Assembly: GCA_964534185.1 (NCBI GenBank)
Contig: CAZHOH010000002.1
Span: 10,558 to 74,557 of the forward strand
DNA: 64,000 bases
Reading direction: 5' to 3'
Source of the DNA: Candidatus Woesearchaeota archaeon
GTDB taxonomy: Archaea > Nanobdellota > Nanobdellia > Pacearchaeales > GW2011-AR1
Position numbers and translations under genes: made by a program. This document shows positions 1 to 56,526 of the stretch, piece after piece; the first letter of the stretch is position 1, and each line of letters opens with the position of its first letter. The notes under the pieces are model-generated. The model was not told the DNA's origin, ran no database searches, and was given only the letters and a program-made list of their open reading frames with translations.

Positions 1-916
1 TGTAGAGCTTGTCCTGCTGCCTCGGGAGCAGGGACGGAGTGTCTCCGTATATGATACCGAGGGGCCATATCCTGCTGACCTTCCCCGGGGGAGGCTCCCA
101 CTCGCCGCACTCGATGGCGAGTCGCAGCACGTCCAGCCTCAGGGGCGGGTCGTTGCACCACCCGTGCTCCCTCTCAAGGAGGTCGACGAAGCGCTTCTTG
201 AGGCCGCGCTCGCGCATGGCCCGGATGATCCAGGACACGGGCCTGCCGTCCCTGGCGCCGAACCTCCGGCTCCCCCAGAGGCGCTCGAGCAGGTAGCGCG
301 CGGGCGCGCAGTCGTCCATCAGGTCTCCGACGCATGACCTCAGCGGCCTCCCCCGGGGGAAGACGTATCGCAGCCCGAGGTCCTTTCTCGTGCCGACGAA
401 GTACGCGCGCCGGCGCTGCTGGGGTATCCCGAAGTCCTTCGTGTCGAGCACCTCGCACGCCACGTCGTAGCCGCAGTCCTCTAGGTTTGCCATCAGGGTG
501 TCGAAGAAAGAGGACCCGTCCGCGTTCAGGATCGACCTTATCTCCTTGACGTTCTCGAGCACGAAGAAGCGCGGCTGCTTGGCGCGCAGCACGCCCATGA
601 GGGTTAGGGCGAGGTTCTTGCGGTCGTCGTCCCCAAGCGTCCTTGAGTTCTTGTTGTAGTAGCGGCCGTTCCTGGAGAATGGCTGGCACGGGAACCCTCC
701 CATGAGGAGGTCATGGTCGGGGATCCCCCGGGGGTCAATCCGGGTCATGTCGACGGCGGGTTCCTCGCCGTGGTTGGCCTCGTAGGTCGCGCGCGCCTGG
801 TCGTCCAGCTCCACGGACAGGACACATTCCAGGCGCTCCCCGGCCTCCTTGGCAGCGGCCTCCGCGGCCATCCTGAACCCGCCTATGCCGGCGAATGTAT
901 CGACGAATCGAATCAT
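1..916 (-). CDS. DNA (cytosine-5)-methyltransferase, 3' end cut by window edge
   Basis: Absent from the ORF track because it runs off the window. My translation from ATG at 916 gives MIRFVDTFAGIGGFRMAA (motif I), GGFPCQPFS (motif IV, ~675-700) and FFVLENVKE (motif VI, ~545-575). No in-frame stop down to nt 2. Confidence 0.9.
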   Translation of the reverse strand, partial: MIRFVDTFAGIGGFRMAAEAAAKEAGERLECVLSVELDDQARATYEANHGEEPAVDMTRIDPRGIPDHDLLMGGFPCQPFSRNGRYYNKNSRTLGDDDRKNLALTLMGVLRAKQPRFFVLENVKEIRSILNADGSSFFDTLMANLEDCGYDVACEVLDTKDFGIPQQRRRAYFVGTRKDLGLRYVFPRGRPLRSCVGDLMDDCAPARYLLERLWGSRRFGARDGRPVSWIIRAMRERGLKKRFVDLLEREHGWCNDPPLRLDVLRLAIECGEWEPPPGKVSRIWPLGIIYGDTPSLLPRQQDKLY

Positions 917-1016
917 TGTTTCTCCTTCCGGTTAATGATACCGGGAGGAAGGATCTGTCTGGTCAGGCGCGCTAGACCTTCGGGGCGCAGGCGAAGTCGC
1001 CGCGCCCCGGTTCTCC

Positions 1017-5153: not shown

Positions 5154-5485
5154 TGGCCATCTTCCCCCTCCTTGATGACCGGGGGCCTAGATGGGACGCC
5201 AGCGGAGGGCGCGGCGGAGTTAAATGAACCCGCGGGGCGAACCCCCGGGGGCTGCGGTTCCGAGTGCTCACGGGCGTACACAAGGGCAGTGGCCGCCACT
5301 GCCAGCAGGGAGACGGGCCAGATCAGGGACAGGACGCAGGCAAGGAGGCCGTCCGCCAAGACGTGCTCTAATCCTCTTGCCTGTCCATAGGACAGCCCGT
5401 GCCATATTCCAATTATATTCGCGCAGGCCGCCACGCCCAAGACATAGACGAAGAATGCTATCCAGACGATGATCATGTTTGTCAC
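5126..5485 (-). CDS. small integral membrane protein
   Basis: Two or three hydrophobic helices (IIVWIAFFVYVLGVAACANIIGIW; LLACVLSLIWPVSLLAVAATALV). Confidence 0.6.
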   Translation of the reverse strand: MTNMIIVWIAFFVYVLGVAACANIIGIWHGLSYGQARGLEHVLADGLLACVLSLIWPVSLLAVAATALVYAREHSEPQPPGVRPAGSFNSAAPSAGVPSRPPVIKEGEDGQWYLNEEAS

Positions 5486-5999: not shown

Positions 6000-7148
6000 T
6001 CACTCGCGGCCGAAGGTCCATTTCGCCACCCGAATCGCCTCTGGATCCCCCGTCTCCTTGCCTGGCTCATCACTCAATTTTACCACCGGAATGCCGTTCA
6101 CCGAGCGCAGCTTCATCACGATGCTGAGCGGGATGCAGTCGTCGAAGTCGTTGGTCAGGTGGGTTCCGATGCCGAACGACACCTTGAATGTGTCCTTGTA
6201 AGCCTCCTGCAGGGCGATGGCCTTGTCGATGGTCAGGCCGTCGCTGAAGATGATGGTCTTCCCCCGGGGGTCGACCCGCTGTTTCTCGTAGTGCTCGATC
6301 GCGGCCTGCGCGAACTCGAAGGGGTCTCCCGAGTCATGCCTTACCCCGTCGTACGCCCTGCTCAGTTCCATGTCGAAGTCCTCCCAGAACGCCTTGGTTC
6401 CGAATGTGTCGGTCAGGGCAATTCCGAGGCTCGCCTGGTAAACGCGCATCCACTGCCGGAGCGCGTAGCGATTGGCGTGACGCAGGGACTCAAGCGCGCT
6501 GACCCCCATTACCCACTCGTGCGCCATGGTTCCGATGGGCTTGAGCCCCATCGACCTGGCGAAGGAGACGTTGCTGGTCCCTGCCAGCGTCCCGAACGAC
6601 TTCAATTCTCCCAGCACGGCCGAATGCGCCATGTGGCACCGGCGCCGACGGGTCCCGAAATCGGCGTAGCTGGCTCCCGCGAGCTCCATCCGCTGCCCCT
6701 TGGCGCGAGCCTTCCTCACCGCCTCCTTGACGAGGTCCTCGTCCCGGCCGTCCCATGCCAGGTTATGACAGGCCTCGCACACGAGGGCAAGCAGGGGAAC
6801 CTCCCAGAGGATAGCGCGGCACCATGGCCCCCGGACGACGATCTGCAGGTCGCCGTCGTGGACCACCTCCACCTCCCGGGGGTCGAAGCGGTAGTTGCGC
6901 AGGTACTCGACGTACTGCGGCTTGAAGAACGGGATCGACCGGAGGTAGTCGGCCTCGGCGTCCGTCATCTTGAACTTCCCGACCGTGCCCGTGACCATGC
7001 GCTCAACCTCGCCTGCCACCCCCGGGGGGAGGGGAGCGGTGCCGCGGTTGTGGAACCGGTATTCCACCTGCGCGTCCGGGTAGAGTTCCAGGACGGCCTG
7101 CTGCATGGTGAACTTGTACAGGTCGTTGTCCAGAATGCCAGTGCTCAT
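6000..7148 (-). CDS. pncB: nicotinate phosphoribosyltransferase
   Basis: Colinear with E. coli PncB as I recall it (DNDLYKFTMQQAV, WEVPLLA, FGTRRR, GTSN, GTMAHEW, GIALTDT, RHDSGDP, SFGIGT, KLSDEPGK). Start reset to ATG 7148 (MSTGIL), which has a GAGGGGG RBS. Confidence 0.93.
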   Translation of the reverse strand: MSTGILDNDLYKFTMQQAVLELYPDAQVEYRFHNRGTAPLPPGVAGEVERMVTGTVGKFKMTDAEADYLRSIPFFKPQYVEYLRNYRFDPREVEVVHDGDLQIVVRGPWCRAILWEVPLLALVCEACHNLAWDGRDEDLVKEAVRKARAKGQRMELAGASYADFGTRRRRCHMAHSAVLGELKSFGTLAGTSNVSFARSMGLKPIGTMAHEWVMGVSALESLRHANRYALRQWMRVYQASLGIALTDTFGTKAFWEDFDMELSRAYDGVRHDSGDPFEFAQAAIEHYEKQRVDPRGKTIIFSDGLTIDKAIALQEAYKDTFKVSFGIGTHLTNDFDDCIPLSIVMKLRSVNGIPVVKLSDEPGKETGDPEAIRVAKWTFGRE

Positions 7149-8420: not shown

Positions 8421-9995
8421 CTAGGTCTCGAACTCGACAAGGTAACGCAAAACGTTCTGGTCTTCTTGATAAACGATCCACTCGTTGTTCATCACATGGC
8501 TGTAATTCGCCTTGCCAAACACGCTGTGGCAACCCCCCGGGGGGGAGGTATACCCGCGCGGGCCTGGAGCCAGGAAGGGTTTCCCGAGGACGACGTCGCC
8601 GAGGAACATGAAGGCCTTGCGGCCTCGCACTGCGCCGCGCCCTCCGGACCAGAACGAGTTCTGTAGGCTACAGTATCCCGCGGCCTTCTTCCAGTCGTCG
8701 GCCCAGTACGTTCCAGGTCCGAACATGGCTCCTGTGATGGCTACGCCCACCAGCTTCTTCGGCATCATCAGGCTCTTGGACAAGATTCCGCTGACATTGA
8801 CGGAGCGGGTGCCGTGGAACAGCAGGGCGGTTCTGGAGTCCCTATGGGCCGAGAGCGTCCCGTTCAGGTCGGGTCGCGAGCGAGGCGAGAACATAGGCTT
8901 CTCCCGGGAACTGGGCTTCTGCGCGGCAATCTGCGCCTGCTTGGCGTCGAACCGATGGCGGCAGGTCGGCTTGTTCGCCTCCCAGATGTTATGGACCTTC
9001 ATTTGCCCAAGTCCCCTGTGGAGGTTTCGCGTCGCCCGGGGCAGGAAGTCCATGATCCACTTGCCTTCCCCCCGGGGGTCAAGCCAGCGCATCTCGAGGT
9101 CTATCCCATCCAGGGGATTGCGGGTCATGTCGTCGATGTCCTCGAGGCTGGTGGACAAGGCTTGCTCGAACGCGTCAAGGTCCTGTTGCCATGTCAGGAT
9201 GTTCTTTTGCGACAGAACCCACGTGGACTCGTCCGCGCCGACGGGCTTGACCTTCGGGATGCGCGAGTAGAGCAGCCGACTGAATTCTCTCAGCCGCTTG
9301 TCCTTGACCTGACGGTCAGGGTCGTCGCCTACTTTCGACAGCCGCTTCAGGGCCTCCGTGAGGATGTGCCTACCTTCGTTGATGGCATCCTGGGTAGGGA
9401 TGCTGTCGTCCGCCATCGAGTTGCGCGTGTAGTTGGCGGTCGCTACGTTTAGGTCGTGCATCAACTGCATGACCTTCGGATCCGGCAGGGAGTCCGCGCG
9501 CCTCGCCTTGCTCGACTTCTTGGTTTTCTTGGCGGGAGCGTCTCCCGTCTGAATCTTCTTCGCCCCGGGCAATCCGGTCGACCTGGTTGCCTGCGGGCGG
9601 ACGAGGTAGCAGTCCTTGCCCTTTTTTGCCCGCAGGGCCTGTATCCCGGAGATCTTCGTCCATTCTCCGCGCTTGTCATTCTTGCTGTGCAGTTGCTTCT
9701 CGTATGCCTTCCGCGCCTCGTCCTCGCACATGGCCATGACGAACTGGAAGTCCGGACGGGAAGCGCCGGTGCGGCCCCACTCGAAATAGGCGTACCATTC
9801 CCCCGTCTGCTTGGATCTGACGACGGCCCCGTGGTAGAACTTGTTGGTGTCCCGTCCGTCCTGGGTGAAACATCCCAGGTCAGCGACCCCAGTGTCCTCG
9901 AACTCCCCATCCTTGACCGCAGGAGGGCCAAAGCACTCGAAGTCATCGGGGCCATGGCAAGCAGGAAACTGACGTTTTGGTAGTTTGGTAGCCAT
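8421..9995 (-). CDS. poly(ADP-ribose) polymerase-like protein (WGR + helical + PARP catalytic domains)
   Basis: WGR: KFYHGAVV...WYAYFEWGRTGASRP. Catalytic H-Y-E: LLFHGTRS, GPGTYWADD, NNEWIVYQEDQ. Confidence 0.85.
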   Translation of the reverse strand: MATKLPKRQFPACHGPDDFECFGPPAVKDGEFEDTGVADLGCFTQDGRDTNKFYHGAVVRSKQTGEWYAYFEWGRTGASRPDFQFVMAMCEDEARKAYEKQLHSKNDKRGEWTKISGIQALRAKKGKDCYLVRPQATRSTGLPGAKKIQTGDAPAKKTKKSSKARRADSLPDPKVMQLMHDLNVATANYTRNSMADDSIPTQDAINEGRHILTEALKRLSKVGDDPDRQVKDKRLREFSRLLYSRIPKVKPVGADESTWVLSQKNILTWQQDLDAFEQALSTSLEDIDDMTRNPLDGIDLEMRWLDPRGEGKWIMDFLPRATRNLHRGLGQMKVHNIWEANKPTCRHRFDAKQAQIAAQKPSSREKPMFSPRSRPDLNGTLSAHRDSRTALLFHGTRSVNVSGILSKSLMMPKKLVGVAITGAMFGPGTYWADDWKKAAGYCSLQNSFWSGGRGAVRGRKAFMFLGDVVLGKPFLAPGPRGYTSPPGGCHSVFGKANYSHVMNNEWIVYQEDQNVLRYLVEFET

Positions 9996-15303: not shown

Positions 15304-17148
15304 TCACTTCAAACTCAGGACGCCAACCTCCTGGCGCCCGGTGACGTACACGCCATTCTTCCCAGCGAAGAGATGGCAACCTTCATTCACGAACGGCTCC
15401 GTGTCGGGGAACTCCTTTTCCACCTCCAGTAAGCCGCCGTTGTTCCTGATCCGCCTCAAGCCCTCGTCAGAGGCGCTTAGCAGCATCTTGTCAAACGCCC
15501 ACTTTCCCCTGATTCCGGATAGCCAGGGATGGTCGGCCTGGTCGGTCTGCTCCGTCGCCAGAACCTCGCCGTGGCGACTGACCACGTGGCATTCGTTGAC
15601 CTTCCTCTTGCCCTGCTGCGTGCTCACGAAGAACCAGCAGCAATGATCCCCGAAAAAGCAGGTCGAGTCTATCAGTTGGCCGCGAACCTTGACGTTGACG
15701 GAGTCGTTGATCTTTCCGTTGACGTCGAATACGAAGGCCACGCTCAACTGGCCGGCGCGATAGAAGCCCAGGCCGAACTCCGGGCCCACCCAGAAGAGGG
15801 TCTGGTTCCTCAGCACGTCGCCTATCCTCTTGTATCCCAGTATATCATCACGATAGAGTACACCGTCCTGCAACCAGAACTTATCGCGCCCGTTGGCGTC
15901 GAATATGGGCAGGTTGCCGTAGAAGTCGACCGGCAACTGCTCCAACTTGCCATCCTTGTCCACGACCAGCGCCGGCTTCCCGGACATGCCAATGAGAGTC
16001 TGATTCCCGCAGATGCGAAAGCGCATCTGGTGATGCGCGGACCCCTTGAGGACCTTTACTCCCCCTTCTCTCCAAAAATGTCCGTCTTCCCAATAGAGCC
16101 ACCTCATCTGGCCATCCTGCATGGCGGCGAACAGGATGGTTCCCTTCGTGGAGAATATCTTCTTGTATTCCACGTTGCCCTTGACGACCTCCTTAACGAG
16201 CGGAACGACCTTCTGGCACTCCGGGCAGGACTTTCTCGCGTGCTCGAAGCCGCAGCCCGGGCAGACGCGCCACTGCGTGTTCAGCAACTGCAGCGGGAAC
16301 GGACCCCGCGTGTCCTTCTCGAACACCTGGCGTAAGTAGTCCGCCAGGTCGTCCGGCAGGGACTTGAGGGGCCGCGCGGGCTTCGGGTACTTGACCTCCG
16401 AGTCAAATACCGTGATCCGGTGCAGGGGCCGCGCCGGGTGGGGCACCTTGCGCTTCTTGTCCTTGGGACGAAAAACCCCCCCGTATGGGTCAACGAACAT
16501 CAGGGTCTGCATGACCATGACCGCGAAGGCGTACCAGTCGGAGTCCTCGTTGTGGGGCCTGACCAGGACGGGCCTGTTCTGGCGCGCGTCGCACAGCAGG
16601 GGATCCACGAATCGCTCCGTGTAGACACGGCAGGGAAACGTCCTGAACTGCCAACTGTCAGCGTCGATGACGTAGGGCGTATCGCCTTTGACGAGGACGT
16701 TGAGGTCGTTGAAGTCACCAACCACCGCGTCCTTCTCGTGGATCGCCTCGACCACCTGGGCCAGTTTCTTCAGAATCCTGTTGACGACATTGTTGTTGAC
16801 GCCATGCCGGAAGGACTTCTCTCCATAGCGGAGCAGAGGCTCTGCCCCCTCGACCATGTCCATCACGTAGCCAACGATCTTTCCTTTCCTGTCGGTCGCA
16901 ACGTCCAGCGGGACGATGACGTTCGACGGCACCCCCCGGGGGAACTGGGTCAACTTCTGCTGGTGCTCCTCTATGCGAATCCTCGCGGCCTGGCGCTGGT
17001 CGACGGTCAGGTGGTCGGGATGGTTCTCTCCCTTGAAGACTTTGAGCGCGTGACCACCGGGGATCCGGTAGACGTCAGCTTCGCCGCCTTTGCCTATGCT
17101 ATCGGTAGGAGCAACGCTTATGCGCTTGCTTCTGACGTAGACTTGCAT
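15304..17148 (-). CDS. Ser/Thr protein kinase with zinc ribbon and C-terminal repeat domain
   Basis: GKGGEADVY...ALKVFK (Gly loop plus Lys), VVGDFNDLNVLV (catalytic loop), VIDADSW (DFG-like) and CPGCGFEHARKSCPECQK. About 270 aa of beta-rich C-terminus. Confidence 0.85.
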   Translation of the reverse strand: MQVYVRSKRISVAPTDSIGKGGEADVYRIPGGHALKVFKGENHPDHLTVDQRQAARIRIEEHQQKLTQFPRGVPSNVIVPLDVATDRKGKIVGYVMDMVEGAEPLLRYGEKSFRHGVNNNVVNRILKKLAQVVEAIHEKDAVVGDFNDLNVLVKGDTPYVIDADSWQFRTFPCRVYTERFVDPLLCDARQNRPVLVRPHNEDSDWYAFAVMVMQTLMFVDPYGGVFRPKDKKRKVPHPARPLHRITVFDSEVKYPKPARPLKSLPDDLADYLRQVFEKDTRGPFPLQLLNTQWRVCPGCGFEHARKSCPECQKVVPLVKEVVKGNVEYKKIFSTKGTILFAAMQDGQMRWLYWEDGHFWREGGVKVLKGSAHHQMRFRICGNQTLIGMSGKPALVVDKDGKLEQLPVDFYGNLPIFDANGRDKFWLQDGVLYRDDILGYKRIGDVLRNQTLFWVGPEFGLGFYRAGQLSVAFVFDVNGKINDSVNVKVRGQLIDSTCFFGDHCCWFFVSTQQGKRKVNECHVVSRHGEVLATEQTDQADHPWLSGIRGKWAFDKMLLSASDEGLRRIRNNGGLLEVEKEFPDTEPFVNEGCHLFAGKNGVYVTGRQEVGVLSLK

Positions 17149-18038: not shown

Positions 18039-19040
18039 CTAAATGAACTCTACCCCCCGGGGGGACAGGCGAACGCGCCTTATCTTGATCGTCTCGCTCT
18101 CGTCAAGTTGCTCTTGCCAAGCATCCCGGGATAGGTCGATGGTTCTTTTGTCCTCGAAGAGGGCAGGCCCCGAAACCAACTCCAGAGGCACGTCTCCGAT
18201 GAAGGCCCCCCAGGCCTCCAGCGGCTCGCTCTCCTCCATTAGTTGGAGCGCGCGGCGGAAGGCTGGCATCAGGCGGGCAATGTAAAACGCCCGGTGAACA
18301 CCATGTTCGCTGTCGTCCGCAATCATATCCTGCCAACACACGTCCAGCGTATGTTTGTGTATGCGCAAGAGACAGTCATCCAGCTCTCCCTTGGGCAGGA
18401 CAGCCGGGGTTGCAACGTTCTCCTGTTCCCGGAGAACCTTCCACTCCTTGATGATGCGGACGATGGGGTCGCTCGGGGGCTGCTTCTCAAGGTCTTCCTC
18501 CATCCACCCTTCATGCGTTGTGGCAAGGTGGTAGAACTCCTCCATGCTGCAGACGTCACATTCGGACGACTGACGGAGCGCGTCGAACAAGATGTCTCGC
18601 ATGCGGCTGACGTTGGCGCAGCAGGCGGGCAGGATCTTGCTCTCGCATCCGCAAATATCGACCCATGTTATGGCGGCAAGTTGGATGCTGACGGCCCTGA
18701 GTTGGCCCTCAAAGTCATGGTCATATATCGGTTTCAATACGGATTCGTGACGGCTCTCATCTACCTTCAATGCGACGCGCGCATCCATGTTGCGCATGGC
18801 CTCGTCGGTTTTGCGCTGCGCGGCCTGGACAGCCTGGTCTCCCATCTCCTCTACGGTGCGCCGCCCCTTGAAGGTCGCCCGGATCTCGTAGGTCACCCGA
18901 ACCGCCTCGGCATAGCCGTGGTCCATCAGCCACTTCAGATCCTCCCACTCGGGATGGCTGCGCTCGGCATTTAACTGCTGCTCGTGAACCAGCCTCCGCA
19001 GGGTCGACAGACGTTGCTTCTTCTTCTCAACCATGGACAT
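18039..19040 (-). CDS. hypothetical protein (333 aa), Cys-rich centre
   Basis: ORF with an AGGAGA RBS. No family recognised. Confidence 0.65.
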   Translation of the reverse strand: MSMVEKKKQRLSTLRRLVHEQQLNAERSHPEWEDLKWLMDHGYAEAVRVTYEIRATFKGRRTVEEMGDQAVQAAQRKTDEAMRNMDARVALKVDESRHESVLKPIYDHDFEGQLRAVSIQLAAITWVDICGCESKILPACCANVSRMRDILFDALRQSSECDVCSMEEFYHLATTHEGWMEEDLEKQPPSDPIVRIIKEWKVLREQENVATPAVLPKGELDDCLLRIHKHTLDVCWQDMIADDSEHGVHRAFYIARLMPAFRRALQLMEESEPLEAWGAFIGDVPLELVSGPALFEDKRTIDLSRDAWQEQLDESETIKIRRVRLSPRGVEFI

Positions 19041-22407: not shown

Positions 22408-22408
22408 C

Positions 22409-26731: not shown

Positions 26732-26737
26732 TACGGA

Positions 26738-41130: not shown

Positions 41131-43065
41131 CTAAAGCATCGCCTCGAACTCGTTCATTCCTATGATCTGTACGCCCAACTCGCGGGCCTTCTGAGCCTTG
41201 CTTTTCGTGCTGGACGTATCCTTGAGGACGAGGTAACTGAGTCCCTTGCTCACGCTCTTCTTTTCCTTGCCTCCCGCCGCTTCCAGACGTTGCCTCTGAT
41301 CAGGATCCATTCGTACCCCAGAGAAGCAGAAGGTCTTCCCGTACAACTTGCCGTCGGACACCTCCTTCTTGAGCGGGGTCACCTTGATTATCCTGACCAG
41401 CCTCTCTATTAGATCCTTGCGGGACTGGATCGACTCTGTAACCTCCTTGGCCGGCTCCTCGCCGAACGTTCCCTTCTCGCTGAATGGCTTTCCGACGAGA
41501 TCCTTGGGTGCGAGGCCAAGATATTCCTCGACGGTATCGATGCCGATAAGGCGAGCGCGAGACCTGCCGAGCATCTTGATGGACAGCGATCCCATGAACA
41601 TGTCGATCGGGAGTTCTCGCGTCTTGTCAATCTCTGACACGATCTTCTTGGCGTTGCTGCCGATGACCCCGTTGCCCACCGGGCACTTCGACACGCTGGC
41701 CTCGTCGAGCGAGTAAAGGTCATCTATGTCCTTGACCAGACTCGCCTCGACCAGGGACCTGAGCGCCGTGGAGCCAAGTTGCTTGATGTCTAGCTTGTCA
41801 ACCCAGTTCCTGATCCTCTGGAAGTAGAGGTCTGGGCAGGTGGGGTCGGTCACCAGCAGGCGCTTGCCCTCCCAGGACAGGTCGTATTCCTTGCCATCGG
41901 AGGCCTTCCATGCCCCCGGGGGAGGAAAGGGGCCGGCCGTGTTCTTCTTGGCCACCCTCGTTATGTGCGGGATGATGTCCCCTCCCTTCTCCACCTCGAC
42001 GACGTCTCCGACGTTGATGTTCTTCTCGCTGACGTACTTGAAGTTGTTCAGCAAGCAGTGCGTAACGGTCGTCCCCGCTAGCCTCACAGGCTCGAACACG
42101 GCGGTGGGTATGATCGCCCCCGTTTGGCCGATGGTAAGCTCTATCGAGAGGATCTTGGACTCGGCCTTCTCCGTCTCGAACTTCCAAGCCACCTGCCCCC
42201 GGGGGCGGCTCCCCCCGTCGCTGTACCCCATGGATTCCTGCTTCTCGAGGTCCTCGACCGCGACGACCATGCCGTCGATCTCGAACTCGAGTTCGACGCG
42301 GGAGTCCTCGTATCGCTTGCGGCACTTGACGAGGTCGTCCCAGGTCCGGCAACGGAACCACCGGATCGTCTCGAAGCCCATGGACTCGAGCGCCTTGAAC
42401 TTGTGGCTCTGCTTCTTGAACGCAACCTCGGGGTGAACCAGGTCGAACGCCCGGAACGTGATGTGCTTGTTCGCGCTGGGGTCGCTCTTCGCCACGATGA
42501 CGCCGTTGCCGCCGTTGCGGGGGTTTTCCTTGTCTGGGAGATGCTCCCTCCACGCGCTGACGGACAACTGGGCCTCACCCCGGACGATGACCTGAGCCTT
42601 GACGTCGATCTTCTCCGGCAACCCCTCCCACATGCGGGCGTTGCGGGTGATGTCCATGCCGATCTTGCCGTCGCCGCGGGTGGCAACGCGCCAGAGGCTG
42701 CCCCCGCGATAGACCGCCTCGGCGCTGGAGCCGTCAGCCTTGTCCGACACGATGACCTCGGGCTTGCCGGCCTTCTCGAACCATGCCAGGATGCCGGCCT
42801 CGTCCTTGGCCTTGTTCTGGCTTCCCATGTGCATCAGAAGCCTGACCTCGTCCCGATGCCCGGAGACAGGGGCGCCGACCTCGCTGAAGAACGAGTGCCC
42901 CGGGGCCGCGCGCCGGAGCTCGTCGCGAAGCGCGTCGAACTCCGCGTCGGTCATCAGGGTCATGCCCGTATTGTAATAGGCCTCGCTGGCCGCCCTCAAG
43001 TCGGCAGCGATCTCGTCAGGGGACCTCCTGTCGCCTGGCCCAAAGTTGATTGCTGGATCTTTCAT
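41131..43065 (-). CDS. ligA: NAD-dependent DNA ligase
   Basis: EAYYNTG...TDAEFDAL (Ia), SDKADGSS (KxDG), OB, Zn/HhH region, and C-terminal BRCT (GKTFCFSGV...LSYLVLKD). Start reset to ATG 43065. Confidence 0.92.
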   Translation of the reverse strand: MKDPAINFGPGDRRSPDEIAADLRAASEAYYNTGMTLMTDAEFDALRDELRRAAPGHSFFSEVGAPVSGHRDEVRLLMHMGSQNKAKDEAGILAWFEKAGKPEVIVSDKADGSSAEAVYRGGSLWRVATRGDGKIGMDITRNARMWEGLPEKIDVKAQVIVRGEAQLSVSAWREHLPDKENPRNGGNGVIVAKSDPSANKHITFRAFDLVHPEVAFKKQSHKFKALESMGFETIRWFRCRTWDDLVKCRKRYEDSRVELEFEIDGMVVAVEDLEKQESMGYSDGGSRPRGQVAWKFETEKAESKILSIELTIGQTGAIIPTAVFEPVRLAGTTVTHCLLNNFKYVSEKNINVGDVVEVEKGGDIIPHITRVAKKNTAGPFPPPGAWKASDGKEYDLSWEGKRLLVTDPTCPDLYFQRIRNWVDKLDIKQLGSTALRSLVEASLVKDIDDLYSLDEASVSKCPVGNGVIGSNAKKIVSEIDKTRELPIDMFMGSLSIKMLGRSRARLIGIDTVEEYLGLAPKDLVGKPFSEKGTFGEEPAKEVTESIQSRKDLIERLVRIIKVTPLKKEVSDGKLYGKTFCFSGVRMDPDQRQRLEAAGGKEKKSVSKGLSYLVLKDTSSTKSKAQKARELGVQIIGMNEFEAML

Positions 43066-43214
43066 GAAAAACTCTCCGAGGAGACCATCGCCTTCGGCGG
43101 CCAAACTCGTCGAGGACAAGGCCTCGACGATCGGTCCCCGGCGAAGCGCGAGCCGCCCCGGGGCCTAGCCCCGGGAATCCGCACCCTTCAGGGGGCGGAG
43201 GATGTCAAGTCTTG

Positions 43215-45276: not shown

Positions 45277-45337
45277 TCCACCCCGGGGGAAACCTTACTT
45301 CGGAAGCCATTTTACCATCCCCCGGGGGCACGGCAAA

Positions 45338-46510: not shown

Positions 46511-48604
46511 TCACCACGTGGCGGCCAATCGAAAGGATAACACTCCGAAAGCGCACGCAGCAGCAACTGGGACGACGCCATTTCCCAGCAGGCGTAGCTG
46601 GTCTGTTCGACGCTCGTGGTCGAGTCTGTCCATCCCGGAGGCCACCCCATCAGCCATTCTACAAAGAGCGGGTTCAAGAAGCGGCTCGGCTTCAAGGACT
46701 TGCTCCCATTCCCTGAAGTCCCCTGGCCCCGGGGGCGCGAGGGGGAGGATTGTTCCAGATGGGCCTCGAAAACCTGCGACCACACCTTTGCCAGCGTCTC
46801 GACATGAACCTGATGGCTGCCGCTCTCCGACTGCCCCTTCCGAAGAACCTGCTCGACGCTCATAGCCCTGCCCCCGTTGGGCACGTTCGGCGTTGGCCAG
46901 AGACAGTTCCACACGTCGCTCCACATTTTCGCTACGACCTGGAGGCTCGTCGGAGTCTTCCGGGGGCCTCCCTTCATGCGCCGCTTCATCGCCATGTGGG
47001 CCCCAGGGGTCTTGTTGTCGTCGTTCGCCACCGCCGTTGGCCACAGCGGCCCATTCTGCCGCCCGGAGGATGGCCTCTTCTCCCGGTCTCGCGCCGGCGA
47101 TGAAGAGACGCTTTCGGACATGGCACAGTCCGACTTCCGCCGCCGAGAATAGTCCTGCTTCAACGTCGTAGCCCAGGCCTTGTAGGTCTCTGGCGACCTC
47201 GTCGAAGCCGACGTTAACGTGGTTGGGTACGTTCTCGAAAAAGAGGACGCGGGGTTCTGCCTCCTGGACGATCCTCCTGACGCTGGGCCAGAGGTGGCGG
47301 GGATCCTCCTTGCCCTTGATTCTCCCGGCACAGGAGAACGGCTGGCAGTTGTGGACGACAGTTCCGTCTGCCACGTAAGACTCATCGTCTCGGACTGCGA
47401 TGTTATAGACTGTGTCCTTGCCAACAGGGGCGTTTGAGCTGACGCGCTTCCATCCAAGACCTTGGTCGACGAAGGATGCACGATTGCGATCAGGGATGGA
47501 CACGATCCATGACGGCCTTTGTCTGACGAGTCTGCCTTCGATGACCTTATCTTTTGCGCTTTGGCAGCATCGAACGGCAGCAATGACCCCAAATGCTCGC
47601 TGAGAGAGCAGAGCGACACTGAGAGCAAGGGCCTTGCTCGCGGACTGAACTCGACGAAATCCCCCCTTTCCAACAGGGTTCTTATGTGCTCCTCCGTCTC
47701 CAGACAAGCATCCCTCAAGCAAGGCCCTGGCCTTTCCCTCTCCGAGGGAAAGGTACTTTCCGGGGATACGCTTGCCGCGGGCATGTCGTCCGAATTGCTG
47801 CAAGAACTTGAAGAAACATGTTCTTGTAATGGCGAATCTGGTTGTTGTTCGCTCCTCGCTCCTGTAGGCGCTAAGCCCTGCTTCTTGTATTCGCCTTTCA
47901 AGTTCGTCTGCCTCTGGTCTGTTGCAACAGATGTTGACACGACCATTTCTGTGGGAAGGAGATTTTTGGAGCCAACCGTCAGCCAAGTACCTCCCGACGA
48001 GCCACCAGAATTCTTTTGATCGTTTGTCTGGGCGCACTGGAGGGAGAGCCTGAGCCACCCAATGCGCTCCGGTGAGTTCCTTTGCCTGCACCCAATCAGG
48101 GGAACCAAAAGATCGCTGTCTTCCCTTTTGTTTGCACCTAGCGAAGAAGGGGTGCTCTTCTGTGCATCTGATTCCCGGGGTTCCTTGCGCCTTGATTTCC
48201 CTGATTGGGGCACCGTCCTTGCGCATGACCGCTGTGACTGGCTTCCATCTGGCTCGGTGGGTAAGGACCAGATCTCCAACTCGAACGTCTTCGATGGGGA
48301 CATATCCTCGCTTGCATAAGACGAGGGTTCCTGAGACGAAGCACGGGTACCCTCCAGTGACGCAATCCACGACGCCACGCCATCTTCTGCCGTCGAAGGT
48401 CTTGGCATCCGTCCAAATAGGCGCGTCGTCCAGCCGCCCTTCTTCCATGCGTGATGCCAGTACTTCGATGGCATATCCTTCCCTCTCCACGTAGCAGACG
48501 ACGCGAGAGCCTCCGACCGCCATTCGGAGTCCGAGCTCGAGTCCGCCGCCGCCGGAGCAGAGAGACAGAACGTTGAAGGTACGTATGCCCACATCTTTGT
48601 TCAT
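46511..48604 (-). CDS. DNA (cytosine-5)-methyltransferase interrupted by an intein
   Basis: LSLCSGGGGLELG (I), GGYP|C...HN|CQPFS (IV split), LFFENVPN (VI), RKRLFIAG (VIII), LLGNGVVP (X). See findings for the second open frame. Confidence 0.85.
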   Translation of the reverse strand: MNKDVGIRTFNVLSLCSGGGGLELGLRMAVGGSRVVCYVEREGYAIEVLASRMEEGRLDDAPIWTDAKTFDGRRWRGVVDCVTGGYPCFVSGTLVLCKRGYVPIEDVRVGDLVLTHRARWKPVTAVMRKDGAPIREIKAQGTPGIRCTEEHPFFARCKQKGRQRSFGSPDWVQAKELTGAHWVAQALPPVRPDKRSKEFWWLVGRYLADGWLQKSPSHRNGRVNICCNRPEADELERRIQEAGLSAYRSEERTTTRFAITRTCFFKFLQQFGRHARGKRIPGKYLSLGEGKARALLEGCLSGDGGAHKNPVGKGGFRRVQSASKALALSVALLSQRAFGVIAAVRCCQSAKDKVIEGRLVRQRPSWIVSIPDRNRASFVDQGLGWKRVSSNAPVGKDTVYNIAVRDDESYVADGTVVHNCQPFSCAGRIKGKEDPRHLWPSVRRIVQEAEPRVLFFENVPNHVNVGFDEVARDLQGLGYDVEAGLFSAAEVGLCHVRKRLFIAGARPGEEAILRAAEWAAVANGGGERRQQDPWGPHGDEAAHEGRPPEDSDEPPGRSENVERRVELSLANAERAQRGQGYERRAGSSEGAVGERQPSGSCRDAGKGVVAGFRGPSGTILPLAPPGPGDFREWEQVLEAEPLLEPALCRMADGVASGMDRLDHERRTDQLRLLGNGVVPVAAACAFGVLSFRLAATW
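47348..48343 (-). mobile_element. 332-aa class-1 intein with LAGLIDADG homing-endonuclease domain
   Basis: Starts CFVSGTLV (block A). Contains CTEEHPFF (block B TxxH), LVGRYLADGW and LLEGCLSGDGG (two LAGLIDADG motifs). Ends VADGTVVHN, followed by the +1 Cys of CQPFS. Confidence 0.85.
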
Positions 48605-48631: not shown

Positions 48632-49654
48632 CTACGGGGCCAGCCTCCTTTTGATTTCCTCGCGGACAAACACGCGCGTCGCGTCCAGTTTTTCCTGGAG
48701 AGTCATCTTATCCCGCTCCTTTCCCCAGTAGAGAACGCTCACGTCGGGCCTGTCATGGAGCGGAAGCCATCCTGGCACGTATAGTCCCCAGAACTCGTCT
48801 ACCGAGATCGCCGGCATACCAAAGGAAGGGGCAAGAAAGCCCCCGCCTCCCATGCTTAATGTAAACTCCGCCCCGCTCATTACCTCTAGCTGTCTCTGCA
48901 GGTACTCGGTTCGAACCGGCTTCTTCAGTGTCTCCAGAAACATAGTCTCGTTGCCAATCCTGTTACGGTCTACCCGATCCAGCCGATCTAGGCCCGTGTG
49001 TGGGGCCCAACCAACCCCGATGACTTCGTAGCCGTAGTGGTTGACCAACTCCTTTAATTCCAGCCATTCTAGGAAAGGCAGGCTCCTGCCTCCCGCCGTG
49101 CCACCAAACTCGTCTCCTTTCAGCCACCTTTCGGACAAGCAGGGTATGAAGCACACGTACTTGCGAGGATCCTTCTTGACCCAGGACCAGTCCATCTTCG
49201 CATTGACCAGTTCCCTCGGGAAGTCCCTCCGCATCTTGGAAAATAACTTCAGAACGGCGCTCTTTCCCGTCCCCTCCTTGGCCGGGAAATGATATGAATC
49301 GCTGAACTGGCTCCAAACCTCTTCCTTCAGGTCGTCAAGCCACTCGGAATGTATATTGACCTCGTCTCCGAGCCACCGCTTCAACAGGAAAGCTGGCCAT
49401 ATGCGGGTGACGCATACCTCGCCGAACTCACCGCCGTGAATGATGTTCCTAAGATCCAGATCTATCTTCTCCCTGGGACGGCGCAGAGGGGAGGCCTCAA
49501 CCTCCTCCTCAACCTTGGCCTCAACCTCCTCCTCCTCAACCTTGGCCTGACGTGGGGCCGCGGCCGGAGGATTGAGCGAGAAGCCCCAGCACCTCTTGGA
49601 TCCGTAGGAACAACCTCGTCCCCCGGGGGACGAGGTTTTTCTTTGTCGAGCCAT
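48632..49654 (-). CDS. GT9-like glycosyltransferase carrying the shared 31-aa N-terminal module and a VE/AK linker
   Basis: MARQRKTSSPGGRGCSYGSKRCWGFSLNPPA + AAAPRQAKVEEEEVEAKVEEEVEA + a GT-B-like body. Start reset to ATG 49654 with a TAGGAGG RBS. Confidence 0.65.
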   Translation of the reverse strand: MARQRKTSSPGGRGCSYGSKRCWGFSLNPPAAAPRQAKVEEEEVEAKVEEEVEASPLRRPREKIDLDLRNIIHGGEFGEVCVTRIWPAFLLKRWLGDEVNIHSEWLDDLKEEVWSQFSDSYHFPAKEGTGKSAVLKLFSKMRRDFPRELVNAKMDWSWVKKDPRKYVCFIPCLSERWLKGDEFGGTAGGRSLPFLEWLELKELVNHYGYEVIGVGWAPHTGLDRLDRVDRNRIGNETMFLETLKKPVRTEYLQRQLEVMSGAEFTLSMGGGGFLAPSFGMPAISVDEFWGLYVPGWLPLHDRPDVSVLYWGKERDKMTLQEKLDATRVFVREEIKRRLAP

Positions 49655-49906
49655 GTTGCCTCCTACCAGCCTGTTGGGATGCCGAGAGAAAAATTCCTTC
49701 CCCCGGGGGGCGCGGGAGGGCGTCCATGGCATCGCCGAGGAGGCCAAGCCCTATGCGCTCCTGTTGGCAGTGACGCGAGACTCGGGTGCGTCGGCATTCG
49801 TCAACCTAGTTCAGGATCGGTATGACCTTCACGTACCCGCGACGAGAGGGCCACAGCATGCACCATCCAAACATGATAGCCTCTGGCCTGTCGTACGAGA
49901 TCTCGG

Positions 49907-51596: not shown

Positions 51597-52027
51597 TCTA
51601 TCCTCAGGGCTTCAATCGCGAGGTCACGGAACACGCTCTTGAACAAGTCGACCGAGACCTCCTTCTGTAGCTCCTTGGGAAGGTCGCACTCCTTGAACTC
51701 GGAAAGGATGACGTCGATCGCGTCCAGCGCCTCGGCGACCCTGGCCCTGAGGGCCTCCTTCAAGTCGTCGCTCATCCCGGCATCCCGCCGCGGCCTCCCC
51801 CGGGGAGGAGCTGACTTGGCGTCCTCTTCCGAGGCCTCCTCCAGGTCAGAGATGACGGGGTCCTCGTGGTTCAGGACCGTCTTGAATTCCTCCCCGTCCT
51901 TGGCGATGGCGTTGAGGTAGAGTCCTTCCTCCCGCAGTTGCTGGGTGGCCGCCTCCACGTCGCTCGCCTCTATCGACCCGGCCTTGGTTGCGCCGTCCTT
52001 GGTGAATCCCTCGTAGTTGAACTTCAT
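51593..52027 (-). CDS. hypothetical acidic protein (144 aa)
   Basis: ORF in an operon with ATGA-type overlaps. Confidence 0.55.
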   Translation of the reverse strand: MKFNYEGFTKDGATKAGSIEASDVEAATQQLREEGLYLNAIAKDGEEFKTVLNHEDPVISDLEEASEEDAKSAPPRGRPRRDAGMSDDLKEALRARVAEALDAIDVILSEFKECDLPKELQKEVSVDLFKSVFRDLAIEALRID

Positions 52028-53992: not shown

Positions 53993-55354
53993 CTACTCGC
54001 GCTTGAAATCGAGGTTGATCTTGTAGTTCCACGTCTTGCCGTGCTCCGGGTGCACCCCGAAAACGGACTGGGTTGGCCGCGACGCCTTGCGGAGCTGGTG
54101 CATCGAGTAGATGTCTCCCCCCACGAAACTGCCGTTGACCATGATCTCGCCGCGCGTCGTCTGCAGGTCGCTGAAGGAGTGAAAGTGCCCGAGGCAAAGG
54201 TAGTCGAAGGGCTTTCGCGTCGCTCCCGACACCAGGTTCTGCAGGCTCAGCTCCTCCTTGTAGATGGAGTTGATGTTCTGGGAGATGTAGTCGCCGTGAA
54301 CAAGCAGGAACTCCCAGTCGTTGATGGTCTTCGTTTGCCACCATGCCTGTGAATAGTTGACGTTGATGTTCGGCCTGTTCTGCAGGAGGGCCTGCAGTAA
54401 CTTGTACGATATGAGGTCCCAGTTGGCCGACACCTTGTCGGAGCTCTTCGAGACCCCCGCGCGCCCATGGTTGCCAAGAACTCCGTCGAACTCGACCCGC
54501 TCGAAGTAGGCGCTCCAGGCGTCCAGCATCTCGGAGACCACCTGCGCGGCCATGATGGCCTGCTGAGTGATGTCTAGCGTCGTGTAGGCCGGCCCCCACT
54601 CCCCCGCGAGGTTGGCCCCCTGGACAAAGTCGCCCAGGCCCATAACGTGCAGCACGGGCACCTGCCTGACCTCGCTGTGCAGGGACAGTATCTCGAGCAC
54701 GGCGCTGCGAAGGTTGCTGGCCCTCTCCTTGAACACCTCGACGTCGTAGCCGCCGAGGCCACCCGTGTCCTGCGGGGAGAACTCCTGTCCCACGTGCAGG
54801 TCGGACAGCATGAGCACCATGTGCTCGTCGGAATGCTTCTTATTTTTCGCCCTGTTGAGCGTCAGCTTTGGCAGGGCCTGGCGGGGCAGCGGGGTGGCGC
54901 TCCGCTCGATCGCCTCCTGGAGTTCGCGCAGGAAGGCCTTGTTGCTGACTTCCTTTCTCCGCACCTTGACGACATTCTTCGCGGCCTCCCTGTCCCGGAC
55001 CGACTCGGCCTCCAGGTGCAGGACGTCGTCGTAGGTCATGTCGCACAACTCGGCCAGCACCTCGGCGAACCTATCCCAGTCGACGCTATTGACCTTCCTC
55101 GTGATCGTGGAGCGCTCGTAGCCGAGGGCGTCGGCCATCGCGGCATGGGACAGCTTGGAATTACTGGACACCAGCTCGTATAGGGCGACCATCTTTGGGG
55201 CGTCCCACGCGGCTGTCACGCCGGGCAGGCACGAGAACCGCAGCGGATCCTCCCCGTGCTTCTCCATGAACGCACTGACGGCGTCCACCCTCCGAGTTGA
55301 CTTTCTCTTCGCCAGCCTCTTCCGAATGGCGTCGGCACGATCCTTCCTGTTCAT
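53993..55354 (-). CDS. calcineurin-like metallophosphoesterase with N-terminal HTH-like region
   Basis: LSDLHVG, GLGDFVQG, GNHG, VHGD, GHFH. Start reset to ATG 55354 (TAATG overlap). Confidence 0.8.
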   Translation of the reverse strand: MNRKDRADAIRKRLAKRKSTRRVDAVSAFMEKHGEDPLRFSCLPGVTAAWDAPKMVALYELVSSNSKLSHAAMADALGYERSTITRKVNSVDWDRFAEVLAELCDMTYDDVLHLEAESVRDREAAKNVVKVRRKEVSNKAFLRELQEAIERSATPLPRQALPKLTLNRAKNKKHSDEHMVLMLSDLHVGQEFSPQDTGGLGGYDVEVFKERASNLRSAVLEILSLHSEVRQVPVLHVMGLGDFVQGANLAGEWGPAYTTLDITQQAIMAAQVVSEMLDAWSAYFERVEFDGVLGNHGRAGVSKSSDKVSANWDLISYKLLQALLQNRPNINVNYSQAWWQTKTINDWEFLLVHGDYISQNINSIYKEELSLQNLVSGATRKPFDYLCLGHFHSFSDLQTTRGEIMVNGSFVGGDIYSMHQLRKASRPTQSVFGVHPEHGKTWNYKINLDFKRE

Positions 55355-56526
55355 TAAGATCTCCCTGGCAGGACTGATACGGGTAAAACGTCGCTCGCCC
55401 GGAACCATAAGTCTCGCCGAGCCTCGTCAAGGGGCAGGCTCTCGTCCAAGCCTCCCACTTTTTCCAGCACTGTTCTCCTCGCGACGAAACTATCGGGCGC
55501 GCCAGCGGCGAATATGTGGCCGGGGCCCTCCAGTGCCTTTAGTTGGGCCGCCAGCCGACGCGGTTCCTGCCTGTCGGCCAGCCAGACGTACTTGGTACGG
55601 GTCATCAAGAGGCCCAGGTTGAAGGCTCCCGTGTTGGATGCCCCCGGGGGTGGGACTACGGCCCTGACTCCCTCTGGCGCCGGCCCGTCGGATACGAGTG
55701 TGACCTCGAAGTCATGAAGGCCGCTTCCGCTCAGTTCCCTTGTGACCTTGGACAAGTCGTTCATACTGCCTATTATTACGATTCCCAATGTTGGGACCCG
55801 AAATTTGTCCACGTATTGGGAGGACAAGGAAAATTCCCCGGCCTCCCCCATCTTCCTGAGGCGCGCCTCCACGACGTCCCTTAGCATGCAGGCCATGGAG
55901 TACGAGAACGGGCTGCCGCTTCCGCGCGAGGGCCCGCCTCCCCTATGGATGACGTTTGTCACGGCGTCGGCTTTGCCCGGCGCTCCGCACGCGATGTACA
56001 TGCGCCCCCAGAAGTCCCAGTCCTCCATTTTTTGCAGGCTTTCGTCCCATCCCCCTACGAGCTCGAACGCCTTTCTCGTGTGGATGAACGATGAGACGGG
56101 CGCGATGTTCTGCGACAGGAGCGCGTCGGGGTCGTAATAGCGCTTCGGCCCGGGGTTGTTTGGCTCGGGGTCGGTGGTCTCGAAGCCGTCGGCATAGCGG
56201 AACAACGCCCGGGAGAAGGAGAACTCGTGGCTCCCTATGGCGCGGAGTTGTTCTCCCACGTAGTTCGGCAGCAGCTCGTCGTCGTCGTCGAGATAGCAGA
56301 TGTAGTCCGCGGAAGACATCTTGACGCCGAAGTTGCGGGCGTAGGCAGGGCCCCTTCCCCCGGGGGTGGACAGGAGCCTGGTTCCAGGAACAGGATTCGG
56401 GGCACGGGGACCGTCGTTGACGACAATAATATCCATCACCTTGACTGTTTGGTTCAATGCGGATTTGACAGCACGCCCAAGCAAATCCGGCCTGCTGTAT
56501 GTCGGGATTATAATGGCTATATTCAT
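55354..56526 (-). CDS. family-2 glycosyltransferase (tandem GT-A halves)
   Basis: IIIPTYSRPDLLGRAVKSALNQT and YLDDDDELLP. Start reset to ATG 56526. Confidence 0.85.
   Translation of the reverse strand: MNIAIIIPTYSRPDLLGRAVKSALNQTVKVMDIIVVNDGPRAPNPVPGTRLLSTPGGRGPAYARNFGVKMSSADYICYLDDDDELLPNYVGEQLRAIGSHEFSFSRALFRYADGFETTDPEPNNPGPKRYYDPDALLSQNIAPVSSFIHTRKAFELVGGWDESLQKMEDWDFWGRMYIACGAPGKADAVTNVIHRGGGPSRGSGSPFSYSMACMLRDVVEARLRKMGEAGEFSLSSQYVDKFRVPTLGIVIIGSMNDLSKVTRELSGSGLHDFEVTLVSDGPAPEGVRAVVPPPGASNTGAFNLGLLMTRTKYVWLADRQEPRRLAAQLKALEGPGHIFAAGAPDSFVARRTVLEKVGGLDESLPLDEARRDLWFRASDVLPVSVLPGRS

Follow-up and report, generated by a model that had tools for sequence, protein, structure and literature searches.

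Hyperabundant palindromes of the HIP1 type have been known since the 1990s, their function is unexplained, and they have been hard to explain partly because they are ancient and fixed across whole phyla. The HIP-type palindromes of cyanobacteria are 15- to 300-fold over-represented (PMC5861425). Among phages, the Cluster O mycobacteriophages carry 34 invariant 17-bp dyad repeats (TGTTCGGNNNCCGAACA) in a genome of ~70 kb, one third of them in genes, and these repeats, of unknown function, are read as sites for a dimeric regulator (PMC4351075). The stretch of DNA analysed here, hereafter the window (64 kb; contig CAZHOH010000002.1, positions 10,558 to 74,557), is part of a giant-phage-like contig of at least 107 kb and is populated by the ten-base palindrome CCCCCGGGGG, a genuine DNA-level hyperabundant palindrome of this element.

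By analogy, the nearest working models would be the Cluster O 17-bp dyad repeats, the Cluster A stoperators and HIP1. The comparison with HIP1 (GCGATCGC), already drawn in a preliminary description of the window, is apt, as CCCCCGGGGG is likewise a short perfect palindrome, about 100-fold over-represented, which occupies coding DNA in all frames as well as non-coding DNA, is not explained by codon usage, and shares its genome with methyltransferase genes while the function is unexplained in both cases. In contrast, HIP1 has 8 bp, resides on cellular chromosomes and is conserved between related genomes and across its phylum, whereas the motif here has 10 bp of C and G only, resides on a phage-like element, is shared with the nearest relative at 0/3 sites, and has neither a G-mC step nor a demonstrated cognate methyltransferase. 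The Cluster O repeats resemble the present sites in that over 30 copies with invariant dyad half-sites are spread along a phage genome at about one per 2 kb, but their half-sites are separated by 3 bp, most of the repeats are intergenic and all cluster members have them in common, whereas the site here is contiguous, lies within genes in 86% of cases and is not shared with the relative. The Cluster A stoperators, the IncP KorB operators and the Noc, SlmA and MatP sites are all cases where one protein reads many dispersed short sites, as is proposed here; the stoperators, however, are asymmetric, oriented with transcription and intergenic, unlike the CCCCCGGGGG sites, and the KorB, Noc, SlmA and MatP sites are far sparser, with about 10-70 in a replicon or chromosome. 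While HIP1-like palindromes and genome-wide dyad repeats of phages are already known, new here are the contiguous decamer of C and G only, its presence on a phage-like element, its overwhelming location in genes, the near-saturation of coding opportunities and its apparent youth.

Abundance, coding frames and protein cost

An exact search of the window finds 22 copies of CCCCCGGGGG and 35 of the octamer core CCCCGGGG, 13 of the latter beyond those inside decamers (Table 1). The 22 decamer starts listed in the preliminary description are all exact, and its number of additional octamers was also right, while five of their coordinates were 1-2 bases off (28683, 29356, 31211, 33916 and 51797 instead of 28685, 29357, 31212, 33917 and 51798, respectively). 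Since three of the decamers (26612, 28771 and 49620) lie in 97-99% identical copies of one cassette, the number of independent decamers is 20. The earlier expectation of 0.3 decamers and 3 octamers agrees with 100 dinucleotide shuffles, which contain on average 0.20 CCCCCGGGGG (maximum 2) and 2.82 CCCCGGGG (maximum 9) and none of which comes near the observed counts; Markov models of orders 0-3 give 0.1-0.35 expected CCCCCGGGGG. Control words of the same composition occur 0 times for GGGGGCCCCC and once for GGGGCCCC, and GGGCCC is found 12 times versus 72 for CCCGGG. Like the HIP-type palindromes, CCCCCGGGGG is short, perfect and at least 15-fold over composition, and the 35 cores in 64 kb are in keeping with the at least 30 near-invariant, dyad-symmetric copies at ~1 per 2 kb of a Cluster O-type array, the density of sites being about one per 2-3 kb.

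A composition effect, a codon or dipeptide bias or an assembly artefact might be suspected, as the window is rich in G and C (GC content 58-60%) and proline and glycine codons are rich in these bases. When synonymous codons were permuted within each of the 66 called genes, which make up 93.5% of the window, 500 shuffles that preserve the proteins and the codon usage gave a mean of 1.96 CCCCCGGGGG (at most 6) and 8.5 CCCCGGGG (at most 15); the enrichment therefore stands against the very test that the preliminary description had proposed for its refutation. With 0/100 dinucleotide and 0/500 codon-preserving shuffles near the count, a composition or codon artefact is ruled out. An assembly artefact is ruled out by independent Logan assemblies of run SRR7048225, which are 100% identical to the window over 21483-26583 and 26657-28727, including six sites, so that the motif was not made by one assembly pipeline. 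The contig comes from the same population as this run, and look-ups with four proteins yielded just two short Logan contigs, both of this run. Altogether, an artefactual origin of the enrichment has next to no probability.

The unit of the motif is the ten-base dyad, since the information ends at 10 bp, CCCGGG elsewhere is at expectation and the mismatch variants are at chance. Enrichment rises outward from the centre, from 1.1-fold for CCGG and 2-fold for CCCGGG to 12-fold for CCCCGGGG and ~100-fold for CCCCCGGGGG, and past 10 bp the flanks have no base preference of note, nor do the copies have a common flanking sequence. Outside the motif neither CCGG nor CCCGGG is enriched in the window, 37 copies of the latter (72 - 35) being left versus 36 by codon shuffle. 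Each single-mismatch variant of CCCCCGGGGG occurs 0-4 times, which is about chance, with 11 transition versus 9 transversion variants and no T/A variant depleted below chance. The motif family is all-or-none, with no decaying cloud of variants.

Along the window the over-dispersion of sites is mild (variance/mean 1.4 in 4-kb bins). The gaps noticed earlier (9.1-16.9 kb, 18.1-25.8 kb and beyond 56.4 kb) are confirmed, two or more gaps of at least 7.7 kb having a probability of 0.007, while the peak of 11 sites in 25.8-31.3 kb that had been assigned to the methyltransferase/glycosyltransferase locus is partly an effect of the triplicated cassette. The low-GC island at 56.5-64 kb contains neither sites nor compatible peptides, versus 4.2 sites expected at the density elsewhere. 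Of the 35 sites, five lie between genes, a share in line with the non-coding fraction, and the other 30 (86%) lie within genes at any distance from the gene ends, unlike the mostly intergenic sites of a Cluster O-type array.

All three codon phases are used, namely as xxC-CCC-CGG-GGG (Pro-Arg-Gly, PRG), CCC-CCG-GGG-G (Pro-Pro-Gly, PPG) and xCC-CCC-GGG-GG ((S/T)PGG), in agreement with the earlier report of sites in genes of both strands and in different phases. A single protein motif, which that report had also discounted, is ruled out by this use of three frames with three different peptides. Pro-Arg-Gly is written CCC-CGG-GGG in 11 of 13 instances (2% expected) and Pro-Pro-Gly is written CCC-CCG-GGG in 9 of 11 (3.7% expected), and 21 of the 26 peptides able to carry the decamer synonymously do carry it (about 80%). 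The PRG, PPG and PGG tripeptides are also enriched 2.1- to 3.2-fold in the window proteins; the nucleotide word shapes the proteins, not the reverse.

A signal in RNA or translation would imply that CCCCCGGGGG in mRNA pairs with transcripts or with a small RNA, or that PPG and PRG slow the ribosomes. As the word equals its reverse complement, any mRNA across a site carries CCCCCGGGGG regardless of gene orientation, and in the three 5′ cassettes the decamer tops an 11-bp hairpin just after the start codon. However, three peptides in three frames exclude a single translational effect, five sites are intergenic, and outside the cassettes the flanks add no pairing, so that no stable local structure is expected; a role at the RNA level is accordingly deemed highly improbable. 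Terminator hairpins were rejected as an explanation, as an extended inverted repeat followed by a T-run is present only in the three cassette copies and the other 32 sites have no extended pairing.

Alignments with homologues at seven sites show a substitution at every one of them and no insertion or deletion. The RAPR[W/F]A of the solved LigA, which is strongly conserved, has become RPRGQ in the NAD-dependent ligase, and in the NAPRTase the DP[L/M][T/K]K of the solved homologues has become DPRGK; the FPRG of the kinase-like protein falls on the family pattern FP[K/R][G/N/D]LP and inside family variation. The conserved proline codon serves as the anchor, with the residues after the proline altered, and point substitutions have produced CCCCCGGGGG in situ, for the most part where a proline codon already existed. 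Sites have been gained nearly everywhere the protein tolerates them, and also in places needing an amino-acid change. The force on the 10-bp dyad appears to have progressively improved partial matches by synonymous as well as non-synonymous changes, at the expense of conserved enzyme motifs. Since amino acids have been exchanged even in conserved motifs, which suggests a strong force in one direction, the claim of the preliminary description that the enrichment implies function is plausible.

The same alignments bear on the idea that a tiny selfish palindromic element, akin to the Rickettsia palindromic elements and the GC-rich palindromes of some organelles, inserts into genes and has left the sites as its copies or footprints. 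C/G palindromes seem to have invaded genes separately in L247 (Ga0314768_1004836, positions 1-3043), an unrelated organelle-like contig with rps12 and rpl11 and a GC content of 58%. It has 13 CCCCGGGG cores scattered over 3 kb, of which one falls within the N-terminus of rps12 and many have short palindromic flanks. In the window, however, none of the seven alignable sites has an insertion relative to its homologues and the copies do not share flanks; an insertion element was rejected on the absence of indels, and such an origin is given only the faintest chance.

The close relative and other genomes

The orphan open reading frame (ORF) 27873-28658 has one 83%-identical homologue, which leads to a close relative in the form of two short Logan contigs (L127 and L128) that align to window positions 27336-28670 with 82% nucleotide identity and equal GC content. 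The reads of the relative are in runs SRR10018916 and SRR10018917. The relative is without the motif at all three comparable sites. At 27345 and 27402 the window has TCCCCGGGGG and CCCCCCGGGGGGG, versus TCTCCGGGGG and CCCTCCCGGGGGA in the relative, respectively, both differences being synonymous, and at 27626 it has TTCCCCCGGGGGTGG (FPRGW) versus TTTCCCCGGGAATGG (FPREW), a Gly versus a Glu. The Gly of FPRGW is probably the derived state, that is, a gain in the window lineage, because the acidic residue of the relative fits the F/Y-P-D-[D/S]-[F/Y] pattern of the C5-cytosine methyltransferases (C5-MTases). Conservation of sites above control palindromes, as in HIP-type systems, is not seen (0/3 in the relative, a very small sample), and neither is the Cluster O-type sharing among related phages in the equally small comparison with the one relative. 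The motif is private to this lineage and apparently young.

Inside the motif, 7 of about 31 positions differ from the relative, versus 18% overall, which is about the background rate; toward the window, five of the seven differences are T-to-C or A-to-G, one is an opposite C-to-G and one is a transversion. The five T-to-C or A-to-G differences, together with a saturation of synonymous opportunities as expected of a strong drive, could suggest that the sites have no function and that a repair or recombination bias (T:G to C:G correction similar to very-short-patch (VSP) repair, or biased gene conversion) outpaces selection. VSP repair skews CCWGG-related words in E. coli, and its Dcm/Vsr system resembles the present case as a C5-MTase genome where T-to-C correction could favour a C/G-rich palindrome, but its skew amounts to less than 2-fold enrichment with depletion of the T variants, whereas here the enrichment is 100-fold over 10 positions, the T variants are undepleted and the window has no vsr. 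A bias acting at one methylated position only converts one-mismatch neighbours (~0.2 each by chance), and since these neighbours are rare and T variants are not depleted, it cannot yield such an enrichment. Furthermore, neither Vsr (PF03852) nor another mismatch endonuclease is found among the ~70 window ORFs scanned, the radical replacements in conserved enzyme motifs would need fixing against purifying selection, and the divergence of the motif positions does not stand out from the background. A purely mutational origin is thus considered quite unlikely.

The motif could also be a signature of the host, such as a host palindrome or an uptake-like or recombination signal, that was picked up by residence, with the relative residing in a different host. 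Both its absence from the close relative and its absence from the low-GC island, which was probably acquired recently, fit a build-up with residence time. The uptake sequences of Neisseria and Haemophilus resemble the motif as 9-12-mers that occur about once per kb, lie in genes in all frames and are spread by molecular drive, but they are asymmetric, as known uptake and Chi sequences are, come from naturally competent cells and are species-wide. A complete scan covered 185,579 species, each represented by one genome, for pairs of W-flanked decamers separated by 60-90 bp; at the density of the window this would give about 2.5 matches per 4-Mb genome and detection in about 91% of cases. It found 56 loci, close to the chance expectation, and no genome with dispersed in-gene enrichment, the host itself not being identified. 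On inspection, the 56 loci are local arrays (ATACCCCCGGGGGTAT operators, tandem units, hairpins) or isolated chance pairs, and the same scan of JGI metagenomes found 97 loci of the same kinds, with the unrelated L247 as the one exception. A host signature is therefore regarded as very unlikely.

Nucleotide searches of phage and plasmid collections gave no match, nor did a concatenated 2,998-residue query for more fragments of the relative; viral and genome collections contained no exact copy of the 22-bp palindrome of the cassette, and metagenomes none of a 24-mer that is conserved between window and relative. More distant carriers of the PP2C/kinase-like/NAPRTase cassette, namely L001 (GC content 42%), L123 (46%), L124 (67%) and L126 (50%), are without enrichment. 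The matches listed in a two-copy pattern scan of viral contigs were mainly terminator hairpins (CCCCGGGGG-loop-CCCCCGGGG), which is a different phenomenon, and the literature on the decamer concerns primers and GC clamps only. Arrays of (A)TGTACCCCCGGGGGTACA(T) and ATACCCCCGGGGGTAT occur in AT-richer intergenic DNA of metagenomic and actinobacterial contigs (L237, L230, L269, L149, L172 and others). They look like operator or iteron arrays, presumably resembling CsoR/RcnR-type operators, and imply that C/G-tract palindromes with TAC/GTA flanks are protein-bound elsewhere.

Candidate readers and drivers of the sites

The decamer array may represent sites for a dyad-symmetric DNA-binding protein, their density being kept by selection; this reading is favoured tentatively, its probability being placed somewhat short of one half. 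In such a model, the decamer would be the recognition site of a sequence-specific protein of the element, with the two CCCCC half-sites read by a dimer or a tetramer, and selection would act on the density of about one site per 2-3 kb and not on individual sites. A graded advantage is the simplest fit, because the stepwise improvement of partial matches is what the graded binding affinity of a dyad-symmetric protein would give. The bound protein might function in genome-wide regulation, in compaction or coating of the element's own DNA, or in the marking of self. The binding model gains support from the C/G-tract palindrome arrays of other contigs, such as GTACCCCCGGGGGTAC and ATACCCCCGGGGGTAT, which are operator-like.

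Several points weigh against a DNA-binding protein as the explanation. First, no helix-turn-helix, ribbon-helix-helix, ParB or CsoR-type match that could indicate a candidate is found in the ~70 window ORFs scanned, and the window covers 64 kb of the contig. Next, 30/35 sites are in genes, whereas the known regulator-site arrays of phages are mostly intergenic. Finally, the comparison with the relative, the sole close one found, spans only 1.3 kb, and the neutral loss of three ancestral sites in the relative (18% divergence) has a probability of about 0.2, so that the recent gain rests mainly on one polarised amino-acid change.

A more far-reaching possibility, held to be rather less likely than not, is that a giant phage has recently re-coded its own genes with a private 10-bp mark, read by a factor that this lineage alone acquired. 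Nearly every Pro-Arg-Gly, Pro-Pro-Gly and x-Pro-Gly-Gly would then have been rewritten and others newly made by replacement, conserved enzyme motifs included, and the mark could load a protein that coats, compacts or hypermodifies the phage DNA, setting it apart from that of the host. If so, the window would provide the first example of a HIP-like system from a virus. Because the relative is only 18% diverged and without the motif, the reader or driver gene could be found by subtracting the two genomes, and the motif-free relative could thereby name the responsible gene, which has not been achieved in 25 years of HIP1 work. The sites, if they mark the element's own DNA, would also give a virus a new means of distinguishing self from host. 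In any event, the window illustrates the extent to which a signal in the DNA can take precedence over protein coding, and gene finders, codon-usage models and phylogenies of such genomes must allow for the motif.

Alternatively, the decamer or its CCGG/CCCGGG core could be the target of a C5-MTase of the element, possibly further modified by the GT2/radical-SAM enzyme, with the modified sites kept for self-marking, for strand discrimination in repair or for protection. The three C5-MTase genes within 64 kb, all confirmed by Pfam as had been recognised in the preliminary description, and the GT2/radical-SAM fusion adjoining one of them are consistent with this, and every cyanobacterial hyperabundant palindrome examined co-occurs with a methyltransferase for an internal subsequence (PMC4390886). 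The relative, however, has an enzyme about 86% identical (155/180 residues) to that of 26645-27880 in its final 180 residues (231-411), a stretch that probably contains much of the target-recognition region, and yet the motif is missing at 3/3 sites in the same gene; the enzyme is weakened as the driver, since the relative keeps a similar one without the motif. Moreover, the information spans 10 bp, the targets of C5-MTases being usually 4-6 bp, and CCGG and CCCGGG show no enrichment beyond the decamer. 5-Methylcytosine mutates toward T and should erode the sites, and Elhai's model requires a G-mC step, which the decamer lacks. The specificity of the enzymes is unreadable from sequence, as the PDB matches to bacterial enzymes (HaeIII, HhaI) cover the catalytic half only and NCBIfam assigns only the generic 'dcm' family. 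Methylation as the driver is therefore judged unlikely, though it retains a minor share of the probability.

Genomic context of the sites

The window resembles a section of a giant phage or of a similar element. Its genes include a sigma-70 factor, an NAD-dependent ligase, a peptide deformylase, a WGR-PARP protein and a NAPRTase, together with genes for a kinase-phosphatase-RNA-ligase fusion, RlaP and a Thg1-like enzyme, and the window proteins have only distant matches to huge uncultured phages and jumbo phages.

Table 1 Motif sites, C5-cytosine methyltransferase genes and 5′ cassettes of the window
Feature	Positions	Strand	Gene or location	Peptide or remark
CCCCCGGGGG	350..359		C5-MTase gene 2-916(-)	FPRG
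CCCCCGGGGG	725..734		C5-MTase gene 2-916(-)	DPRG
CCCCCGGGGG	5242..5251		ORF 5126-5485(-)	QPPGV
CCCCCGGGGG	6261..6270		NAPRTase 6000-7286(-)	DPRGK
CCCCCGGGGG	7019..7028		NAPRTase 6000-7286(-)	LPPGV, variable region
CCCCCGGGGG	8534..8543		WGR-PARP-like 8421-9995(-)	SPPGG
CCCCCGGGGG	9069..9078		WGR-PARP-like 8421-9995(-)	DPRGE
CCCCCGGGGG	16933..16942		kinase-like 15304-17148(-)	FPRG
CCCCCGGGGG	18054..18063		ORF 18039-19040(-)	SPRGV
CCCCCGGGGG	26612..26621		5′ cassette copy 1, gene 25657-26646(-)	SSPGGR; centre of 22-bp palindrome
CCCCCGGGGG	26995..27004		C5-MTase 26645-27880(+)	DPRGE
CCCCCGGGGG	27401..27410		C5-MTase 26645-27880(+)	IPPGGN
CCCCCGGGGG	27625..27634		C5-MTase 26645-27880(+)	FPRGW
CCCCCGGGGG	28771..28780		5′ cassette copy 2, gene 28746-31127(+)	SSPGGR
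CCCCCGGGGG	30700..30709		GT2/radical-SAM fusion 28746-31127(+)	ESPGGE
CCCCCGGGGG	41913..41922		NAD-dependent ligase 41131-43119(-)	PPPGA, variable linker
CCCCCGGGGG	42196..42205		NAD-dependent ligase 41131-43119(-)	RPRGQ
CCCCCGGGGG	45319..45328		intergenic, between 44386-45276(-) and 45338-45877(-)	
CCCCCGGGGG	49620..49629		5′ cassette copy 3, gene 48632-49654(-)	SSPGGR
CCCCCGGGGG	49700..49709		just upstream of cassette copy 3	probably non-coding
CCCCCGGGGG	55641..55650		GT2 gene 55354-56613(-)	PPPGA
CCCCCGGGGG	56357..56366		GT2 gene 55354-56613(-)	TPGGR; last site ahead of low-GC island
CCCCGGGG (tCCCCGGGGg)	83..90		C5-MTase 2-916(-)	PPPGK
CCCCGGGG	25794..25801		ORF 25657-26646(-)	
CCCCGGGG (tCCCCGGGGg)	27345..27352		C5-MTase 26645-27880(+)	DSPGD
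CCCCGGGG (cCCCCGGGGc)	28685..28692		intergenic, upstream of cassette copy 2	paralogue of 49700
CCCCGGGG (cCCCCGGGGa)	29357..29364		GT2/radical-SAM gene	
CCCCGGGG (cCCCCGGGGa)	31212..31219		ORF 31174-31881(+)	
CCCCGGGG (cCCCCGGGGa)	33917..33924		ORF 33825-34532(+)	
CCCCGGGG (tCCCCGGGGg)	36381..36388		ORF 35760-37172(-)	PPPGK
CCCCGGGG (gCCCCGGGGc)	42898..42905		NAD-dependent ligase 41131-43119(-)	
CCCCGGGG (gCCCCGGGGc)	43156..43163		intergenic 43120-43214	
CCCCGGGG (aCCCCGGGGg)	45281..45288		intergenic	
CCCCGGGG (gCCCCGGGGg)	46727..46734		intein-bearing C5-MTase 46511-48604(-)	
CCCCGGGG (cCCCCGGGGa)	51798..51805		ORF 51593-52027(-)	PPRGR
C5-cytosine DNA methyltransferase	2..916	-		PF00145, 8e-50; candidate reader; C-terminus runs off window
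C5-cytosine DNA methyltransferase	26645..27880	+		4 motif sites; stop overlaps start of ORF 27873-28658
C5-cytosine DNA methyltransferase with intein	46511..48604	-		Hint and intein C-terminal splicing matches
5′ cassette copy 1	26554..26693	-		promoter region, GGAGG ribosome-binding site, N-terminal MARQRKTSSPGGRGCSYGS(K/E)RCWGFSLNPPA; carries CCTCGTCCCCCGGGGGACGAGG
5′ cassette copy 2	28698..28866	+		97-99% identical to others; relative's orthologous gene without cassette
5′ cassette copy 3	49534..49702	-		97-99% identical to others

In the intein-bearing C5-MTase, the intein of about 330 residues is inserted after the PC catalytic motif. The 261-residue product of ORF 27873-28658(+), whose start overlaps the methyltransferase stop in an arrangement typical of a restriction or repair partner, belongs to no family in Pfam, PHROGs, NCBIfam or PADLOC and has 3 homologues among 1.8 billion representative proteins. 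It was considered as a nuclease partner of the methyltransferase, with no family match and an AlphaFold model that is unusable at a pLDDT of 46.

The 5′ cassette measures 140-169 bp and heads three unrelated genes, including that of the GT2/radical-SAM fusion, giving each an upstream region, a GGAGG ribosome-binding site and one and the same N-terminal peptide, which is followed by Ala/Lys/Glu-rich repeats. Since the 28746-31127 orthologue of the relative starts without it, the cassette would seem to be a portable 5′ module or targeting tag that has spread in recent times. The 22-bp palindrome of the cassette with its T-run on the antisense strand resembles an intrinsic terminator.

The segment 13305-17942 encodes a PP2C phosphatase, a 614-residue kinase-like zinc-ribbon protein and two ORFs of unknown function, and is often found beside NAPRTase, NAD synthase, NUDIX or radical-SAM genes. 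At about 50% identity it is conserved in over 2,000 contigs, which reach 1.7 Mb in length and include L001, L123, L124 and L126, and one copy lies in an Aenigmarchaeota genome bin next to sigma-70 and ParB genes; the module looks like a widespread mobile NAD-related cassette. The block at 56500-64000, with a GC content of 47%, encodes a UDP-GlcNAc 2-epimerase, a DegT aminotransferase, a sulfotransferase, FkbM methyltransferases, a SASA esterase and a GNAT protein, and in view of its foreign composition and codon pattern this sugar block is probably a recent acquisition.

Genes of RNA repair and end processing are located at 20805-25599, 37178-38146, 40247-40786, 44386-45276 and 52496-53566, and comprise the kinase-phosphatase-RNA-ligase fusion, a second RNA ligase, RlaP, a Thg1-like 3′-5′ polymerase, an OB-HD nuclease and an Rv2179c-like exoribonuclease, an unusually rich set which suggests a counter-measure to host defences that cleave tRNA or mRNA. 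A 74-nt direct repeat (40209-40282 and 40748-40821, 96% identical) spans the ribosome-binding site and the opening codons (MARRFFYDTEFI) of two neighbouring genes, and may reflect either a gene duplicated in tandem or another 5′ module that the two share.

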